A stretch of DNA of 58,849 nt from a bacterium (lineage in GTDB: Bacteria > Patescibacteriota > Minisyncoccia > Minisyncoccales > UBA10102), in contig JAUSJT010000002.1 of assembly GCA_030647485.1 (NCBI GenBank), positions 1 through 58,849 of the forward strand. The letters run 5' to 3'. Positions 50,304 to 57,800 of the stretch are shown here, piece by piece. Positions within the stretch are counted from its first letter, which is position 1; every line of letters starts with the position of its first letter. The notes below the pieces were generated by a model, which was not told the DNA's origin, made no database searches, and saw nothing but the letters and a program-made list of their open reading frames with translations. The position numbers were made by a program, and so were the translations under genes.

Positions 50304-51512
50304 ATGAGCATGGATTTTAAAAATCTTTCTCTCTTGCTAGACAGCATTGCAGAGGAAAAAGGGTTATCAAAAGAGCGCATCCTGGAGGCCGTGGAGCAGG
50401 CCTTGGCTGCAGCATACAAAAAAGAATACGGAACCCGAGGGCAGGTGGTGAAAGCGAAATTGAACCCCAAAAACGGGGAGGTTGAGTTTTGGTTAGTGAA
50501 ACTCGTCGTTGACGAGGACATGATTTATTCAGAAGAGGAATTGGGGAAGTTGAAGGATACTGTGATAATCCCAGAACAGGGAAAAGGAGAAGATGCAGCA
50601 GCCGAGGGCAAGAAGGTGCGTTTCCATGAAGAACGCCACATGATGCTGAAAGATGCAAAGAAGATAAATCCAAAGATAAAGACGGGAGAAGATCTTGAAA
50701 CAAAGTTAGAGTCAAAGACCGATTACGGCAGAATTGCCGCGCAAACCGCAAAGCAAGTCATACTCCAGAAAATACGGGAAGCAGAGCGAGAATCCATACT
50801 CTTAGAATTCAAATCAAAAGAGGGAAATTTGGTTTCAGGTATTGTACAAAGAATGGAAGGCGTGACCGTGTTTGTGGACTTGGGCAAAACTCTGGGAGTG
50901 CTGCCTAGAGAAGAGCAGGTTCCAGGAGAATTCTATCGATTGGGCCAGCGCCTCAAGTTTTACGTTATAAGCGTGGAAGATTCTACGCGCGGACCCCAGA
51001 TTCTCTTGTCTCGCGCATACCCCAAGTTTATCTCCAAGCTTTTTGAGCTTGAGGTTCCGGAGATCTCTGCAGGCTCCGTTGAAATCAAGGGATTGGCAAG
51101 AGAGCCGGGATCCAGGTCTAAAATAGCAGTGGAGTCGCATGCAGACGGCGTAGACCCGGTAGGATCCATGGTTGGGCAGCGAGGCACCAGGGTCTCTGCG
51201 GTTATTAACGAGTTGGGAGGAGAAAAGATTGATATTATTGAATGGGCAGAAGATCAAGAGCAGTATGTAGCCAATGCGCTGTCTCCAGCCAAGGTGTTGG
51301 AGGTGAAGGCTTTAGACAAGAATAGGGCCATTGCCATTGTTCCTGAAGACCAGCTCTCCCTTGCAATAGGTAGGGAAGGTCAGAATGTAAGGTTAGCTGC
51401 AAAGCTTACCGGGTGGAAAATAGACGTGAGAAGTCCGGAGAATAAAGATGTTGAGGTAGAAGAAAAGGAGTCTGGACAGGAAGAAGAAAAAACTGATACA
51501 ATAGCATCATGA
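50304..51512 (+). CDS. nusA: Transcription factor NusA
   Basis: [13 protein letters not shown]1, [54 protein letters not shown]. Confidence 0.98.
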
Positions 51513-52093
51513 ACCTGATCCCTACGGTTATAGAAAAGAGCCAGTACGGAGAGCGGGCATATGACATCTATTCCCGCCTATTGAAAGACCGTATTATTTT
51601 CTTGGGAGGCGCGGTGAACGATATGGTTGCAAATTCCATCATTGCCCAAATGTTGTTCTTGGCGTCCAAAGACCCGGCAAAACCCATTCAGTTTTACATC
51701 AACACCCCGGGAGGAATGGTTACCTCGGGCCTGGCCATTTATGACACCATGCAGTATATGAAGTGCCCGGTGTCTACAGTGTGCGTGGGCATGGCAGCTT
51801 CCATGGGAGCAGTTCTACTTGCCGCAGGCGCAAAGGGAAAGCGCTTTGCGCTCCCCAATAGCCAGATTATGATTCACCAGCCTATGGGAGGGGCGCAGGG
51901 TCAGGCCAGTGAAATTGAGATTACCGCAAAGCAGATAGTGAAATTAAGAGAGCAGATGAATGGCATTCTTGCAAAGCATACTGGCCAGCCCCTGGAGGTT
52001 ATCTCAAAAGACACTGATCGTGACTTTTACCTCACCGCAGAAGAGGCAAAGACGTACGGTATCATTGATGAGGTGCTTGGGTCCAAGCCCTAA
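51509..52093 (+). CDS. clpP: ATP-dependent Clp protease proteolytic subunit
   Basis: [39 protein letters not shown]. Confidence 0.98.
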
Positions 52094-52094
52094 T

Positions 52095-52156
52095 CCTGTG
52101 GATAACTTAGCTAAGCTAAGTTTGCCTCTCTTCACCGAGAGGTTTTTTGTGTGGTA
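52095..52156 (+). repeat. 62-bp direct repeat, left copy (DnaA box + palindrome + terminator)
   Basis: 54/62 identical to 53068-53129; includes the CCTCTC-TTCACC-GAGAGG-TTTTTT terminator. Confidence 0.9.
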
Positions 52157-52198
52157 AACTAACTGTACTGTAGTGCTTATACGTGGTATAATAATGGT

Positions 52199-52483
52199 AT
52201 GGAGACGCTAAAGAAAAAGTCCATGTTTTGGGATGTTGATGCTATAGATACTAAAAAGAACGAGCAATTTATCATAGGCAGAATACTGGATTTTGGAGAT
52301 GCAGATGACCTTGAATGGGCGATGAGTATATACGGGCCAGAGAAGGTGAAAAAGGGGGTGCTAGAGAGCAAAACATTAAGCAGGAAGTCTCTCTCTTTTT
52401 GGTGTCAGTATTTTTATCTTGATCCATCACAATGTATAAGCAAACTCTTGGGGAAAACACAGAGCGCGTTCTGGAAAAGATAG
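52199..52483 (+). CDS. DUF6922-like putative antitoxin
   Basis: FWDVD..FIIGRIL.FGD..DLEW..YG..SLSFW; paired with the nucleotidyltransferase. Confidence 0.75.
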   Translation: METLKKKSMFWDVDAIDTKKNEQFIIGRILDFGDADDLEWAMSIYGPEKVKKGVLESKTLSRKSLSFWCQYFYLDPSQCISKLLGKTQSAFWKR

Positions 52484-53061
52484 CAATGAGCGGAGTTCTG
52501 GGTCAGTTCTATCTAGCTGGCGGAACCGCCCTGGCGCTTTTGCTCGGCCATAGGAAATCCGAGGACTTGGATTGGTTTTCGGCTAAGCCATTCTCCAATG
52601 GTACCATTAAGAAGAAACTCTCCGAATCTGGTATGTTTCAACTTACAGGAGAAGAAGAAGGTACGATTCACGGTGTTCTAGATGAGGTGAAGATAAGTTT
52701 CTTGCGCTATGATTATGAAATGCTGTTTCCGTTCGTTCGTTTTGAGAGCGTGAATGTCGCAGAGGAACGCGATATTGCCGCGATGAAGATCGACGCATTG
52801 TCTTCGCGTGGGAGTAGAAAGGACTTTGTGGATATTTATTTTCTTTTGCAGAAGTACACTCTTTCCGAGTTGATAGGATTTTTTGAGAAAAAATACAAAA
52901 ACATACAATTCAATAAACTCCATATCTTAAAGAGTTTGGTCTTCTTTGATGATGCAGAATTAGAACCCATGCCCATCATGATGCAAGTAGTGAGCTGGGA
53001 GGAAATAAAACGGAAAATACAGGGAGAAACGACCGCAATGTTAAAGCTGGGTATCGTTTGA
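52432..53061 (+). CDS. AbiEii/AbiGii-family nucleotidyltransferase toxin
   Basis: FYLAGGTALALLLGHRKSEDLDWF, DIAAMK, SRGSRKDFVDIY, KSLVFFDDAE. Confidence 0.88.
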   Translation: MYKQTLGENTERVLEKIAMSGVLGQFYLAGGTALALLLGHRKSEDLDWFSAKPFSNGTIKKKLSESGMFQLTGEEEGTIHGVLDEVKISFLRYDYEMLFPFVRFESVNVAEERDIAAMKIDALSSRGSRKDFVDIYFLLQKYTLSELIGFFEKKYKNIQFNKLHILKSLVFFDDAELEPMPIMMQVVSWEEIKRKIQGETTAMLKLGIV

Positions 53062-53067
53062 GCGACA

Positions 53068-53129
53068 CCTGTGGATAACTTAAAGAGATTAAGTTTGCCT
53101 CTCTTCACTGGGAGGTTTTTTGTGTGGTA
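53068..53129 (+). repeat. 62-bp direct repeat, right copy
   Basis: See left copy; the terminator stem is retained through a G-U substitution. Confidence 0.9.
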
Positions 53130-53178
53130 TACCCCCACACCAACACAGGTTTGCTGTTTGTTTGGTGTGGGGGTATAC
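53127..53178. repeat. 17-bp perfect inverted repeat (CCCCCACA family)
   Basis: GTATACCCCCACACCAA / TTGGTGTGGGGGTATAC. Confidence 0.85.
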
Positions 53179-53215
53179 TGAATCAACGAGGTATAATTAC
53201 TAATATACAAGGCCT

Positions 53216-53653
53216 ATGTTTCAACTAGACAAGAAAAACATTCTTATCATAGGAGTAGTGGGAGCAGCCATTCTTGGAGGAATCTATTTGTATTCTTCAG
53301 GAAAGCTTACCCAGCTCACTGGAGGGGCAAAAGAGGAACAGGTTTTTGAAGAAGTAACAAGTATTGCGGGAAAGGTTGTTTCCGTTGACGAAGCAGGCAA
53401 TTCTTTTGTGCTCTTGCAGCCAAAAGAAGAGCGCCAATTTACTGTGAAGCTAGGGGAAAGTACCGCGTTTATCCGCCTGATATTTCCCTTTGACATTGCT
53501 AATCCCCCGGCCGAGGCAACCTTCACTCCAGAACGCAAGGTCATCACCATAGAAGATCTCAAAGAGAATGACCAGGTGTTTGTGCGCGCCTCATCCCCCA
53601 TTAAAACAAATCAGGATATTGTGAGCCCCTTGGAGGTGCAAGTGCTTCCGTAA
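53216..53653 (+). CDS. Hypothetical membrane-anchored protein (OB-fold/DUF5666-like)
   Basis: N-terminal TM; IAGKVVSVD, FTVKL..T.FIR, ITIEDLKENDQVFV. Confidence 0.7.
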   Translation: MFQLDKKNILIIGVVGAAILGGIYLYSSGKLTQLTGGAKEEQVFEEVTSIAGKVVSVDEAGNSFVLLQPKEERQFTVKLGESTAFIRLIFPFDIANPPAEATFTPERKVITIEDLKENDQVFVRASSPIKTNQDIVSPLEVQVLP

Positions 53654-53691
53654 AGCATGCCATAAGATTATCAGTATTTTTGCTATTACTC

Positions 53692-53720
53692 TTGACAAGA
53701 ATATTGTTTTATGAAAGAAT
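53692..53720 (+). promoter_or_regulatory. Candidate promoter of the AbrB-PIN pair
   Basis: TTGACA-17 nt-AAGAAT. Confidence 0.45.
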
Positions 53721-53727
53721 AATAGTA

Positions 53728-53973
53728 ATGGAGAAAATAGTTTCTATAACAAAACAAGGTCAGCTTACTATCCCAAAGAGTTTTTTAGCGGACTTTAAAA
53801 TTCTAGGCGCAACAAAAGCGCTTATACGAAAATTTGGGGATAGCATTATAGTAGAGCCAAAACACGATTTCTGGTCTCTTTCTGGTGTCCTAAAATCCCG
53901 TGTTTCTTTAACTGATAAAGATCTCAAAAAAGCAAGGAAGTCATTTACGCAAGACTGGCCCAGAAAGGTATGA
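53728..53973 (+). CDS. AbrB/MazE-family antitoxin
   Basis: IVSITKQGQLTIPK, IIVEP, FWSLSGVL. Confidence 0.88.
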   Translation: MEKIVSITKQGQLTIPKSFLADFKILGATKALIRKFGDSIIVEPKHDFWSLSGVLKSRVSLTDKDLKKARKSFTQDWPRKV

Positions 53974-54353
53974 AAAAAGAATTGCTTGATACTAATGTTC
54001 TACTGCGGTTTCTGACGGGAGATAACAAAAAACAGCAGCAAGAAGCAGAACGTTGGTTTAAGGAAGCAGAGCAACGCAAAAGAAAGATTGTTGTACTGTC
54101 CCTTGTGGTTGCCGAAACCTGTTTTGTACTGGAGAGTTTCTACAAAATGCAGCGAGAAGACATTGCGGAAGCCCTTGAGATATTCCTAGCTCAAAAATGG
54201 CTTGAGGCGCCAGAGCGCCAAGCGTTGTTAGGCCTTTGGTCTTGGTATCGCCAAGGTCTCCATTTTGTTGATAGTTTTCTTATTTCTTTTGCAAAATCGC
54301 AAAACGCAGGCATTCTCACTTTTGATCGGTCACTTTCTAAAAAAGTCAGTTAA
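53970..54353 (+). CDS. PIN-domain (VapC-like) toxin
   Basis: LLDTNVLLRFL, VVAETCFVL, HFVDSFL, ILTFD; ATGA coupling to the antitoxin. Confidence 0.9.
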   Translation: MKKELLDTNVLLRFLTGDNKKQQQEAERWFKEAEQRKRKIVVLSLVVAETCFVLESFYKMQREDIAEALEIFLAQKWLEAPERQALLGLWSWYRQGLHFVDSFLISFAKSQNAGILTFDRSLSKKVS

Positions 54354-54397
54354 CCAAAGAATATCCACTTACAATGGAGACGGGAGATGATATAATG

Positions 54398-54448
54398 AAA
54401 ACAAAGCAGGATATTGTAGATCCCTTGGAGGTGCAGGTTCTTCCTTGA
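54398..54448 (+). pseudogene. Stranded, diverged copy of the 3' end of gene 53216-53653
   Basis: KTKQDIVDPLEVQVLP* versus KTNQDIVSPLEVQVLP*; 42/51 nt. Confidence 0.85.
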
Positions 54449-54458
54449 GGCAAAGATT

Positions 54459-54860
54459 ATGAGAGAAAAGTATCTTGTTATTCTCGCGGTTATGGTAATT
54501 GGTACTGCAATAGCAGTTGGTTTTGTTTTCTGGAGCAATAGAAACCTGCCGGCAGAAACTCTTGCAAAAAAACAAAAAGCCGCAAATCCTTGCCTGGGGC
54601 TTTCTGCGGATCAAGGCGAAATAACCTGCGAGGAGGCAAAAAATATCGTGCTTAAAGAGTTCCCTGGCAAAATAACAGAAATCAGCAGAAAACAAATGGA
54701 TTTTACCCTGATTGTGGGGAAAAAATCTTTGTATGATCTCTGGCTTGTAACGGTGCGATTGAATCAACCCATCAAGAGAAAAGACGGCACCGTGAAAACT
54801 GTTGTTATTGTGGGTGTTGACGCGAAAGATGGAAAATTAAAATATTCTGAATTACAATAG
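54459..54860 (+). CDS. Hypothetical membrane-anchored protein (PepSY-like)
   Basis: N-terminal TM; ITCEEAKNIV..FPG, WLVTV, VGVDAKDGKL. Confidence 0.65.
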   Translation: MREKYLVILAVMVIGTAIAVGFVFWSNRNLPAETLAKKQKAANPCLGLSADQGEITCEEAKNIVLKEFPGKITEISRKQMDFTLIVGKKSLYDLWLVTVRLNQPIKRKDGTVKTVVIVGVDAKDGKLKYSELQ

Positions 54861-54862
54861 AA

Positions 54863-57800
54863 TTGATGGGGAAAATATTTATGATAAAAACGGTAATCTT
54901 CTTTGCAACATTTTTCGCGTTTTTTCTCTTTTTCGCGCCTTTAGCGCAGGCCGATGATAGTGAGTGTGTCCATTATACCGATTCAGGTAGTCGTTATGCG
55001 ACTCTTTCTGAGTGCTCCAGTGCGGGCTGGGATAGCTGCATAGATGTGGGGATCGATGAAAGTGTTTACGCAGGTTATTATAAGGATAATACCTATGCTG
55101 GCAATTCGTGTACGGTTGATGCTACTAGTGCGGCTGGTACATGTGATGGTTCTTCGGGGAATTGCGTTGCTACCCCTGTAACGCCTGCCTGCAGTTCAAA
55201 TGCAGATTGCAACGACAACAGCAACTGTTCCACAGATACGTGCAATAACCCAGGCACAGCAAGCGCTGCGTGTAGCTATGGCGCTGCCTGTAGTGCTGGC
55301 CAAGTATGCAATACAGGTATTCCCAAGCCGTACGCGTGTGTAACGCCTGCCTGCAGTTCAAATGCAGATTGCAACGACAACAGCAACTGTTCCACAGATA
55401 CGTGCAATAACCCAGGCACAGCAAGCGCTGCGTGTAGCTATGGCGCTGCCTGTGGCGTTGGTCAAGTATGTAACACTAACATTCCCGCGCCGTACGCGTG
55501 CGTAACGTCTGACGCCACCGCGCCCACTCCTGGCAATTCCGGCACCATCACCACGGCCAGCATTGCCGCTACAACCCTGACCCTCAACTGGACCAAAGCC
55601 ACTGATAATGTAACTGCCCAAGCCAGTATCGTCTATAGGGTTGACCTGTCCACCAGCAACAACATCGGCACCGTGGCCAACGCCGAAGCCAACGGCACCC
55701 CTATCCAGGCATACACCGCCGACATCAATACCTTTAATGTGACCGGATTAAGTCCCGGCACCACTTACTACTTTAACGTCATTGCTAAAGACGGCGCCGG
55801 CAACAAAGCCGTGTACACAACCAAGAGTGAGGCCACCGCTACTCTTACCTTTCCTACCGGAACCTGGCAGAGGTTGTGGTACACCGATCCTAAAACCAAT
55901 GACTTTAGCGCCGCAAGCTACCTGGGGGAAGGTCCAGGAAGCAACGACAAAAATGGAAATCCTCCCAATGTAACTTCCGAGACGTTCGTTACCGATTGGG
56001 GAGACAAACAACTGTACAATACCACTGTTGCTGGCACTGATAACGGGAAGGATAAAATTGGATTTAAGGCAAGTAGAACCCTTACTGGCCTTACGCCAGG
56101 TTCCTATATTATTTCGCTTGGGGCAGACGACGGCATTAAGCTTTTTGTGAACGGCGGCGGCAATCTTTTGCCCTCGACTGCGTGGACCGATAATCATTCA
56201 TATAATGATAATAGACATACGGCGTTGGTGGAGCTTTCTAGTAGTGCAACAATTGAGATTCACTACCGTGAAAATACTGGAGACGCGCAAGTATCGTTTA
56301 GCTATGCTCTTGCGCCTGTTGCGCCAGCTCCTTTACCGGTGATTATCGATCCTTCTGACACCGCAATCTATGTTGCTTGGAATAGCGTTTCTGGCGTTTC
56401 GGGCGCTACCTATCGGCTTGAATGGTGCAAGAAAAGCGTAATTGACGGAGGAGGATCTTTCAGCTCCCCTGGATGCGGACCTCCTAATTCTCCTGCTGGA
56501 GGTCCCCCTTATTTTCTTACCACTGCGAGTACTTCTGGCTATATCATTGGCACCGAACCAGCTACGGCATACAACTTGAGGGTGCGCGTAGATAGTGGGA
56601 CTTCAGTGTTGTATGTTTTCCCTGGCAACTGGGCGTCTGCCAGCGCAACTACAAGGACCCCTCTTAGTTGTAACAATGTAAATCCCACGAACATCTCTGG
56701 CGGTTCAAGCGTTACTAATGACTGTTTCAAGGACGAACGGCGCTGCGGCCCAATAGACACAGAAGCTGGGTGTACGGCCGCGTGTTCCCTTGGAGATAAT
56801 TATCTTTCCTTCGGGCTGAACCCTATTACCCAAATTGGAACCATTACTACGGGCAAGTGGAGGGTGACGGGAAGTGCAAGTTATGATCTTTTTGCCCAAG
56901 GGCACGGAGTTGAGTGCATTGGTCCTGATTGGCGAAGCTGGATTTCTAACGTTAACGCTTCCATTTATCTAAAGTATCCTTCTCCCATTGATACTGCTTC
57001 TAGCTCTCAAGGCCTGAATTGGACGCTAACAGGAGAAGGAGGCCAAGAGTTTTCTTTGCCAAGCGCCGCAACGCTTACATTTGATAAGGTGTTTAACTGT
57101 CCCGATGCGAGTTGCGACCTTTGGTTTTATAGTTCGTTTTCCGGCAATACCTGGGCGCATAAACAGTTCTTCCCTGGGGGAGGTGGAGATTATGTGCGTC
57201 AGCTTGCGGTGATGGATAATAACTTTTCCTGGGTAAGGGTTGACGAAACTGCTCCTGGGATTCCTACTATCAACACCCTGCAGGATCAATGGCGCAAAGA
57301 AAATCCCGTGACCAATGTGGCCGTGACGGATGATATTGCGTTGAGTGAAATAGGATATGCGCTTCGTGGGAAGGATTGTACTTTTCCTGCAGACCCATGC
57401 AGTGAAGCGGATTGGAAGAAGGCGCAAAAAAGCGATTTGTCAGGAGATCTTGCTATAAGCGGTACTTCCGCTACTACAGACTGGAAGATAAGCAATGCTG
57501 ACTGGGGGAGATTTGACGAGGGCTCCAATACGCTTTATCTGCGAGTGAAAGACGCCACAGGCAACTGCAGAGGCTGCGATGACGGCACAAAGATACAGTT
57601 TGGCGTTAAAAAAGACACCGTTGCCCCGACCTCAAAGATCACGGTGGTTGACGATTTGGTAAGAGCGCCGAGGGTTCGTTTAGACTATCCTCTTGTTGGC
57701 GATTCCAGTGCGTACTTAAACGCAGACAATGAGGGAGATACAAAAAAGACATGGTGGATGTATGTAGTGGATGCAGATACGGGTTCGGGGCTTAATACCT

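Follow-up and report, generated by a model that had tools for sequence, protein, structure and literature searches.

The 58.8-kb contig JAUSJT010000002.1, analysed here as one whole window, carries between the host genes clpP and gene145 (our handle for a downstream gene that encodes a 145-aa protein) a toxin-antitoxin (TA) cassette that encodes a DUF6922 protein and an AbiEii-type nucleotidyltransferase. A preliminary description made from the window's sequence alone had proposed that both genes are enclosed by direct repeats, and this was confirmed by a repeat search together with Pfam and PADLOC matches. On the evidence set out below, we consider it probable that a naked, promoter-bearing TA cassette was inserted here by host recombination with a long target duplication, a process that probably involved DNA from a diverged relative. 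The contig is one of four in a 630-kb genome, ~93% of which is covered by open reading frames (ORFs); the host is a groundwater bacterium of the candidate phyla radiation (CPR, Patescibacteria), and its closest named relatives are Candidatus Wildermuthbacteria. The features discussed are collected in Table 1.

The two copies of the repeat, R1 upstream and R1' downstream of the cassette, were recovered as a 65-nt direct repeat (52095-52159 and 53068-53132; 56/65 identical, 86%) with a spacing of 973 nt; the preliminary description had recognized the repeat itself and had given it too short a length (62 bp, 54/62). When a private 46-nt insertion (I1) that adjoins R1' is left out, R1' goes on as TGGTATACTGAA, matching TGGTAAACTAAC of R1, so that the duplicated unit spans ~72 nt, running from the linker through the hairpin and the terminator to the -10 box of gene145. 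In both copies the linker TGTGGATAA is a perfect DnaA-box sequence; it is followed by a hairpin (8 or 7 bp) and then by a 7-bp G+C stem with a U-run, scored as an intrinsic terminator, in agreement with the build of DnaA box, palindrome and terminator described earlier. The nine differences between R1 and R1' comprise six in the 9-nt hairpin centre (one of them a compensatory pair change), two in the terminator (one loop base and one A-U to G-U change) and one in the -10 box; by our own binomial calculation, at least six of nine differences falling within 9 of 65 positions has p ~4e-4. The earlier remark that the differences lie mostly in the palindrome centre, with two in the terminator that leave the stem intact, is thus upheld, with the ninth difference to be added.

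To assess how unique the repeat is, the full 630-kb sequence and 36 family genomes were searched. The 19-mer TAAGTTTGCCTCTCTTCAC occurs at two places only in the window, R1 and R1', with 0.03 expected, and the terminator half of the repeat (the 35-40 nt remaining after its first 30 nt) is found in R1 and R1' only in the whole genome and is absent from the 36 family genomes. The two copies therefore represent a genuine local duplication, as had been supposed. That they could be independent, convergent terminators with no cassette between them would agree with each copy being, by prediction, a terminator and nothing more; we give this alternative practically no credence, given that the 56/65 identity extends to loops and flanks, that the terminator half is unique and that single-copy empty sites exist. 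An Rfam scan of 51400-54900 returned no family at E<=1.

The GTDB relatives from the same family belong to other genera, where rny comes after clpP and pilD before gene145, and hence they offer no empty site for the cassette; the informative alleles came from metagenome and assembly contigs with close orthologues of gene145. In L140, L141, L143 and L144/L145 (81-87% at the amino-acid level), the clpP stop codon is followed by 1 nt, one module and gene145, and the TA pair is absent; these are the one-repeat empty-site alleles after clpP that had been predicted for an inserted cassette. In L049 and L053 the clpP-gene145 gap measures 20 or 55 nt, and hairpin and terminator are absent. The same cassette as in the window is present in L146 (toxin 88% identical) and L148 (81%) with a module on the upstream side only, the cassette lying between the terminator and TGTGTGGTATACT; in L146 it is bounded by the 11-nt repeat TGTGTGGTATA, and in both alleles it stands 45 nt downstream of the hairpin, with a repeat of 11 nt at most. 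L147 (toxin 85%), on a contig that starts inside DUF6922, has the same cassette, 6 nt and then the module. Other cargos at the site are a different DUF6922/AbiEii pair in L050/L051 (toxin 41% identical), the start of which overlaps the clpP stop and which is followed by one module, and an inverted MazE-like/ParE-like pair between clpP and the module in L142. The module is also preceded by clpP in L140, L141, L143, L144 and L146, and R1' is orthologous to the single modules of L051, L142, L144 and L147. The window genome is the only allele seen with a module on both sides of the cassette.

Read from the sequences of these alleles, the insertion, the single-copy empty sites, the resident nature of the module and the presence of alternative cargos are established, and the clpP-gene145 site is a hot spot for TA pairs with apparent insertion points at both edges of the resident module. 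By its predicted elements, the repeat is that resident clpP-to-gene145 spacer module, in which a linker and hairpin of a dispersed family are combined with the putative terminator of clpP and the putative -10 box of gene145. An interim idea that the hairpin is found at the locus only when a TA pair is present was disproved by the single-module alleles without cargo.

The first 30 nt of the repeat (TGTGGATAA plus AACTTA-N7-TAAGTT) represent a hairpin family that is dispersed well beyond R1 and R1'. The genome contains seven exact matches to the strict pattern and 64 CTTA-N7-TAAG sites, and further copies are found in many genera of the host family; the palindrome of the rsmA element, to which the preliminary description had related the repeat, is indeed of the same family. 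These sites lie mostly in very short gaps, with 1-15 nt separating them from the preceding stop codon and a few nt from the start that follows, and also occur in housekeeping gaps (between atpD and atpC, between metG and pheA, and after rpsJ); doublets joined by the linker GTGTGGATAA are frequent. The inner stem pairs form in 56/64 and 48/64 sites, versus ~29 and 28 in shuffles, with none of 2000 shuffles reaching the observed values. The family thus consists of many short intergenic palindromes whose structure is kept by compensatory changes, as is characteristic of repetitive extragenic palindromes (REPs) and the elements built from pairs of them (REPINs), and we read the hairpin half of the repeat as a REP/REPIN-like unit. 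Five Y1_Tnp paralogues (226-293 aa), resembling IS200 transposases and REP-associated tyrosine transposases (RAYTs), are encoded in the 630-kb genome; the gene at C2:6967-7686 (C1 and C2 being contigs of this genome) is preceded by three CTAAGCCTCGCTTAG hairpins and followed by one family hairpin, and the other four are not so flanked.

At the orthologous module (52104-52122 / 53077-53095 in the window; L051 and L140-L148), the hairpin centre is different in every lineage, the ~50 nt that flank it are ~90-98% conserved across lineages, and the linker TGTGGATAA is unchanged in all module alleles save for a single base in one allele. Four of the module hairpin variants (CTTACCGAGAGTAAG, CTTAGTTAAACTAAG, CTTAGCTAAGCTAAG and CTTAAAGAGATTAAG) are identical to hairpins at other loci of the genome, suggesting that the unit is replaced or converted from a shared repertoire, and such turnover would explain why the hairpin centres of R1 and R1' differ. 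We infer that the clustering of differences in the hairpin centre is a property of the hairpin family and not a crossover scar. Separately, a family of ~30-nt mini-palindromes (CCCCGTAC...GTACGGGG) with 5-nt duplications (TTCAC, GTGTG) has copies in the modules of two lineages (L051:3120-3343 and L144:3364-3501), one inside the terminator loop and one between the T-run and the -10 box.

The cassette measures ~900 bp and consists of two TA genes only. Its promoter TGGTATAAT ends 6 nt before the start codon, so that transcription probably yields a leaderless mRNA. Promoter and start are both kept in the homologues L055, L056, L146, L148, L150 and L151, and an extended -10 promoter that stops 4-6 nt short of the start codon accompanies the cassette everywhere. 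The AbiEii protein matches PF08843 at 58 bits (cut-off 22.5) and 11 PADLOC AbiEii models, and has 1441 homologues at E<=1e-40; an exact-sequence look-up of it returned no record. For its partner, DUF6922 (Pfam) is the sole match, with none in NCBIfam, PADLOC or the PDB, and a PDB sequence search yielded no relative of the AbiEii protein either. The designation of the pair as a type IV-like (AbiE) system therefore stands for the toxin family and falls for the antitoxin, which is DUF6922 in place of AbiEi.

At almost every one of 72 loci, drawn from many phyla, DUF6922 and AbiEii form a fixed pair of genes overlapping by ~50 nt. Below, TA_A denotes the homologues of the window cassette and TA_B those of the second DUF6922+AbiEii pair, that of L050/L051. 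Neither hairpin nor box is present within 400 nt in any of the 72 TA_A loci, and the module is likewise absent from L150 and L151 and from the TA_B homologues in family genomes. A repeat borne by the cassette was thereby ruled out, the hairpin being found at none of the 72 TA_A loci and at no TA_B locus of the family genomes. Among Pfam-matched ORFs, there are no mobility genes within or beside the cassette, and the single tyrosine recombinase (Phage_integrase family) of the whole genome, at C2:267690, is on a different contig. The suggestion that the structured repeat is the recombination site of a mobile cassette is not supported, for several reasons: the repeat is a resident spacer that is present once without cargo and is never carried by the homologues, the cassette of L146/L148 is remote from the hairpin, brackets free of hairpins exist (see below), and the only tyrosine recombinase is encoded elsewhere. 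Small GIY-YIG (URI-type) nuclease genes adjoin the closest TA_A homologues (L056:1968-2552, L009/L055, L021 and L023) and also lie directly upstream of gene145 in the relatives G043 and G002.

Similar brackets are found next to the cassette and at other loci. Immediately downstream, a VapBC-type pair of AbrB-like antitoxin and PIN/VapC genes is flanked by R2 and R2', the latter a 58-nt relic of the 3' end of gene145 that is 81% identical to R2; seven of the ten differences are at third codon positions, with five synonymous versus three non-synonymous codon changes. gene145 is directly followed by a PepSY-like gene, which represents the empty site for this pair, in G043, L051, L140, L141, L143 and L144, and R2' is closer than R2 to the native gene145 ends at these empty sites; L049 has the same AbrB-like + PIN pair (87-88% at the nucleotide level) with the relic absent. 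Several of the 57 testable loci with cassette homologues also have direct repeats in the same geometry, of unrelated sequence. In L087 (WOR-3, JBDRWA010000060.1) the TA pair lies between 158-nt copies of the 3' end of the neighbouring gene, which show 26 differences, 21 of them at third codon positions (18 synonymous versus four non-synonymous codon changes); in L072 (Ryanbacteria, MHNO01000009.1) the repeated sequence comes from the 5' end of a copper-chaperone-like gene (six synonymous versus two non-synonymous); and in L111 (Omnitrophota, JBFMHM010000001.1, 1516-3485) two TA pairs lie among three copies of the 5' end of a pilin-like gene, of which one precedes an MNT/HepT pair, one precedes the DUF6922/AbiEii pair and the third belongs to the intact gene. 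All these brackets (L087, L072, L111 and R2/R2') consist of ordinary host coding sequence and have no hairpin. A relic formed on the spot should decay regardless of codon position, and those of L087, L072 and R2/R2' did not; hence, their copies most likely come from two functional homologues, those of a donor and a recipient.

Other cargo between repeats like R1 and R1', which the preliminary description had named as something to look for, was found in the same genome. At C2:143236-144452, after rpsJ, a hairpin doublet is followed by a 65-nt repeat (81.5% identical) around genes for a MerR-like 239-aa protein and an 86-aa protein. This bracket repeat (C2:143253-144452) has the same hairpin, terminator and -10 build as R1/R1', being made up of linker, hairpin, terminator and TGGTATAGT, and begins at the linker edge of the hairpin doublet; as in R1/R1', the hairpin differs with its stem kept and the terminator is nearly identical. 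At C2:262352-264909, an ABC-transporter gene pair and a gene for a 190-aa nucleotidyltransferase-like protein are set apart by a promoter-like module of 36-44 nt present in three copies, and the whole looks like a hairpin-free array of cassettes between duplicated spacers. At C2:220855-221437, a 56-nt repeat (91% identical) that equals a tRNA gene's 3' half lies on both sides of a gene for a 91-aa membrane protein and adjoins a RelE/ParE-like TA pair and a Y1 transposase-like gene. A genome-wide repeat scan also returned many pairs around housekeeping genes, which were set aside as dispersed small elements or paralogous gene ends and not insertion footprints.

As to how the two copies around the DUF6922+AbiEii cassette arose, the insertion with long target duplication that we favour would have been joined by host recombination and not by a recombinase acting on the hairpin. 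The likeliest join would be one homologous plus one illegitimate event after DNA uptake, or a single-crossover integration of a module-carrying circle. R1 and R1' would probably stem from two diverged alleles, R1 having arrived with the cassette from an L146-type allele and R1' being resident, such that the incoming cassette with its upstream module became joined to the left edge of the resident module. Two things may have let the arrangement persist: every gene is left with a terminator and a promoter, and loss through recombination between the repeats is opposed by the addictive TA pair. With 11 differences over 69 positions, R1 and R1' are among the most distant pairs when the orthologous modules are compared in a matrix. 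R1 is nearest to L142 (five differences), and its loop CACCGAGAGG is common only to R1 and the upstream module of L146; R1' is nearest to L144 (five differences), and its loop CACTGGGAGG is common to R1', L051 and L147. The downstream module is missing from the outgroup allele L148, so that its secondary gain in the window genome is favoured.

Several points weigh against this reconstruction. The argument for two ancestries draws on few sites and on a hairpin centre with fast turnover. Outside the hairpin, R1 is simply the more diverged copy, with 4-5 differences from every other module, a pattern that would also follow if the module had been duplicated on the spot long ago and selection on R1 had then relaxed. 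A test for a mosaic cassette, formed by a crossover within the TA genes of an upstream-module and a downstream-module allele (5' part L146-like, 3' part L147-like, best breakpoint ~52860), was not significant (Fisher p=0.04, permutation p=0.30), and the upstream side of the L147 cassette lies beyond the end of its contig. The joint of three cargos at the same base, immediately before CCTGTGG, could reflect a targeted break rather than selection. Sliding-window identity of the flanking genes clpP/nusA and gene145 showed no clear mosaicism.

The main competing account dispenses with a foreign module: an L146-like insertion would have been followed by tandem duplication of module plus cassette and loss of the second cassette via the 11-nt repeats, or a wide staggered break would have been filled in, after which the copies diverged under selection for structure. 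We hold this to be unlikely. L146 displays just such an intermediate with the repeat TGTGTGGTATA, structure-preserving differences are expected either way given that both copies are predicted terminators, and the private changes of R1 outside the hairpin include the decay of a -10 box that would now be useless. Amplification of repeat-flanked addiction modules has also been reported for restriction-modification units (PMC2853133). Set against these points, R1 and R1' are not each other's nearest relatives, their terminator-loop states are shared with different alleles, and the coding analogues L087, L072 and R2/R2' did not decay in the codon-independent manner that duplication on the spot would entail.

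Another account assigns the hairpin an active role, with a RAYT-like Y1 (HUH) transposase or some other structure-specific enzyme nicking the REPIN-like edge and the resulting break capturing promoter-bearing cassettes. Its main support is that three different cargos (those of the window genome, L051 and L142; also L147) join the module at exactly the same base, the first of CCTGTGGATAA; the C2:143253-144452 bracket too starts at a linker edge, one of the five Y1_Tnp-like genes is flanked by family hairpins, and the linker is near-invariant where the hairpin centre changes freely. However, with only 1 nt between the clpP stop and the module, selection alone would confine viable insertions to that point, and the L146/L148 cassette adjoins the opposite module end, with 45 nt between it and the hairpin. 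Furthermore, ~60 other hairpin copies between housekeeping genes are without cargo, hairpin-free brackets are common, the repeat runs on through host promoter sequence, and empty sites retain the full module, unlike those of IS200/IS605-type elements. On balance, capture directed by the hairpin seems quite improbable to us. A bolder version would turn the edges of REPIN-like modules into real sites of capture: a break or stalled fork, caused there by a RAYT-type HUH enzyme or by DnaA on the linker TGTGGATAA, would have promoter-bearing TA cassettes from relatives stitched into it. We regard this as very doubtful; were it true, CPR bacteria would possess an integron-like cassette exchange built from REP elements and host recombination.

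The cassette is separated from gene145 by R1', I1 and the remainder of the resident spacer. I1 has perfect 17-bp arms (RNA fold -36.6 kcal/mol, z=-5.3), is single-copy in the genome and is absent at the same position of L142, L146 and L147, which read uninterrupted TTTTTTGTGTGGTATACTGA where the window has I1. Its right arm resembles the local sequence TTGTGTGGTATAC, and it may thus be a fold-back duplication rather than a mobile element. The spacer remainder (53179-53215) aligns with L142, L146, L053 and L049.

Table 1. Features of the clpP-gene145 region of the window, and Y1_Tnp-like genes on contigs C1 and C2 of the same genome
Feature	Position	Strand	Description and evidence
clpP, upstream host gene	51509..52093	+	Pfam CLP_protease E=3.5e-85; stop codon 1 nt before R1
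Repeat copy R1	52095..52166	+	Linker TGTGGATAA 52097-52105; REP-like hairpin 52104-52122; intrinsic terminator 52124-52143, T-run to 52148; decayed -10 box of downstream gene
Decayed -10 box of downstream gene in R1	52152-52160	+	TGGTAAACT
Cassette left end	52167..52198	+	Own extended -10 promoter TGGTATAAT (52184-52192)
DUF6922 protein, 94 aa, presumed antitoxin	52199..52483	+	Pfam PF21956 E=1.2e-13
AbiEii/DUF1814-type nucleotidyltransferase, 209 aa, presumed toxin	52432..53061	+	Pfam PF08843 E=1.7e-15; PADLOC AbiEii
Repeat copy R1'	53068..53132	+	Linker TGTGGATAA 53070-53078; hairpin 53077-53095; terminator 53097-53116
Start of -10 box in R1'	53125-53132	+	TGGTATAC
Private 46-nt hairpin insertion I1	53133..53178	+	Splits TATACT -10 box of gene145; GTATAC duplicated
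Resident spacer remainder	53179..53215	+	T completing TATACT; second -10 box TATAAT (53192-53197); 5' untranslated region of gene145
gene145, downstream host gene	53216..53653	+	145-aa membrane-anchored protein, function unassigned; orthologues found; last 54 nt in repeat R2
Second cassette, next to the first	53600..54452	+	R2 53600-53657; AbrB-like antitoxin 53728-53973; PIN/VapC 53970-54353; R2' 54395-54452
Y1_Tnp-like gene	C2:6967-7686		Y1_Tnp match
Y1_Tnp-like gene	C2:26254-27135		Y1_Tnp match
Y1_Tnp-like gene	C2:52831-53535		Y1_Tnp match
Y1_Tnp-like gene	C2:222156-222836		Y1_Tnp match
Y1_Tnp-like gene	C1:78684-79454		Y1_Tnp match

The entry of naked TA, addiction and defence modules into chromosomes without mobility genes is poorly understood, and the route via long target duplication is still without a mechanism. 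The clpP-gene145 locus offers an unusually complete series of alleles among uncultured CPR bacteria: empty without the module, empty with one module, occupied with an 11-nt repeat, occupied with a 72-nt repeat, and occupied by two other TA pairs. Together with the mostly synonymous differences of the coding brackets, this series points to recombination with DNA of diverged relatives and makes the mechanism testable. The duplicated terminator-promoter spacer would also insulate the inserted cassette, in a small genome that is almost filled with ORFs. Literature searches on TA pairs with long flanking repeats, and on REP/RAYT elements in Patescibacteria, yielded nothing specific.

Among known systems, the hairpin half of the repeat resembles REPs, bacterial interspersed mosaic elements (BIMEs) and REPINs with their RAYTs in forming dozens of short intergenic palindromes, in the doublets with a fixed linker, in the compensatory stems and in the accompanying Y1 (HUH) genes. 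It differs from them in its very short units (15-19 nt), in a linker that is a perfect DnaA-box sequence, in the number of Y1 genes (five, not one) and in the swapping of the unit at an orthologous site within a repertoire common across lineages. In IS200/IS605-type elements the end hairpins belong to the element, so that empty sites lack them, and there is no target duplication. Such an element or a derivative of it was rejected for the window, where empty sites keep the complete module with its hairpin and the repeat extends 45 nt past the hairpin into the host promoter.

The gene pair itself is like the AbiE and MenAT DUF1814 systems in its AbiEii/DUF1814 toxin, with the signature AGGTA ... 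SEDLDW read from the sequence, and in being an overlapping bicistron with the small gene first. Its toxin is predicted to be short (209 aa), and its partner is a 94-aa DUF6922 protein, not the winged-helix antitoxin AbiEi; because of this partner the pair is not a canonical AbiE system.

Integron attC sites are 57-141 nt long, with R''-L''/L'-R' boxes and extrahelical bases, and integron cassettes are promoterless. With the cassettes of chromosomal superintegrons the window shares small units, structured repeats with variable centres, TA cargo and arrays at one locus. In contrast to them, there is no IntI, attI or Pc, the repeat is a host spacer that is present without cargo, and the homologues of the cassette elsewhere have no repeat; unlike attC, the hairpin is a 19-nt perfect or near-perfect stem-loop without extrahelical bases, and the cassette has a promoter of its own. 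The preliminary description was therefore correct that this is no canonical attC. The pdif (Xer) modules of Acinetobacter plasmids have 28-bp XerC/XerD sites in alternating orientation around small modules, often TA pairs. They too are small modules, often TA, bounded by short structured sites in varied contexts; the window, however, has direct 72-nt repeats that lie on the chromosome and are resident where the site is empty.

The closest parallel is the insertion of restriction-modification units with long target duplication, a phenomenon reportedly described by Nobusato and colleagues in 2000. It is defined by direct repeats >30 bp with a single aligned counterpart at the empty site, by the lack of mobility genes and by allelic alternatives; it is known mostly from naturally competent species, and its mechanism is unknown (PMC2853133; Furuta, Abe & Kobayashi 2010). 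In keeping with that study (PMC2853133), the flanking repeats of the window exceed 30 bp and both copies align to the single copy in L140, L141, L143 and L144/L145. The insert is below the limit of 20 kb and without transposase or integrase; of the repeat, which should not be a high-copy element, the terminator half is unique and the first 30 nt are dispersed. The cargo is DUF6922 + AbiEii, not a restriction-modification unit. The likeness extends to a small addiction unit without mobility genes, to repeats >30 bp and to different units per locus. On the other side, the cargo is a TA pair, the host belongs to the CPR and a whole regulatory spacer (REP-like hairpin, terminator and -10 box) has been duplicated as the target; divergence between the repeats is 14%, at the level of orthologues, versus near identity in the restriction-modification cases; and sister alleles hold the same cassette with an 11-nt repeat or none. 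By analogy, the window case appears to work like an insertion with long target duplication, of which it is not a strict member.

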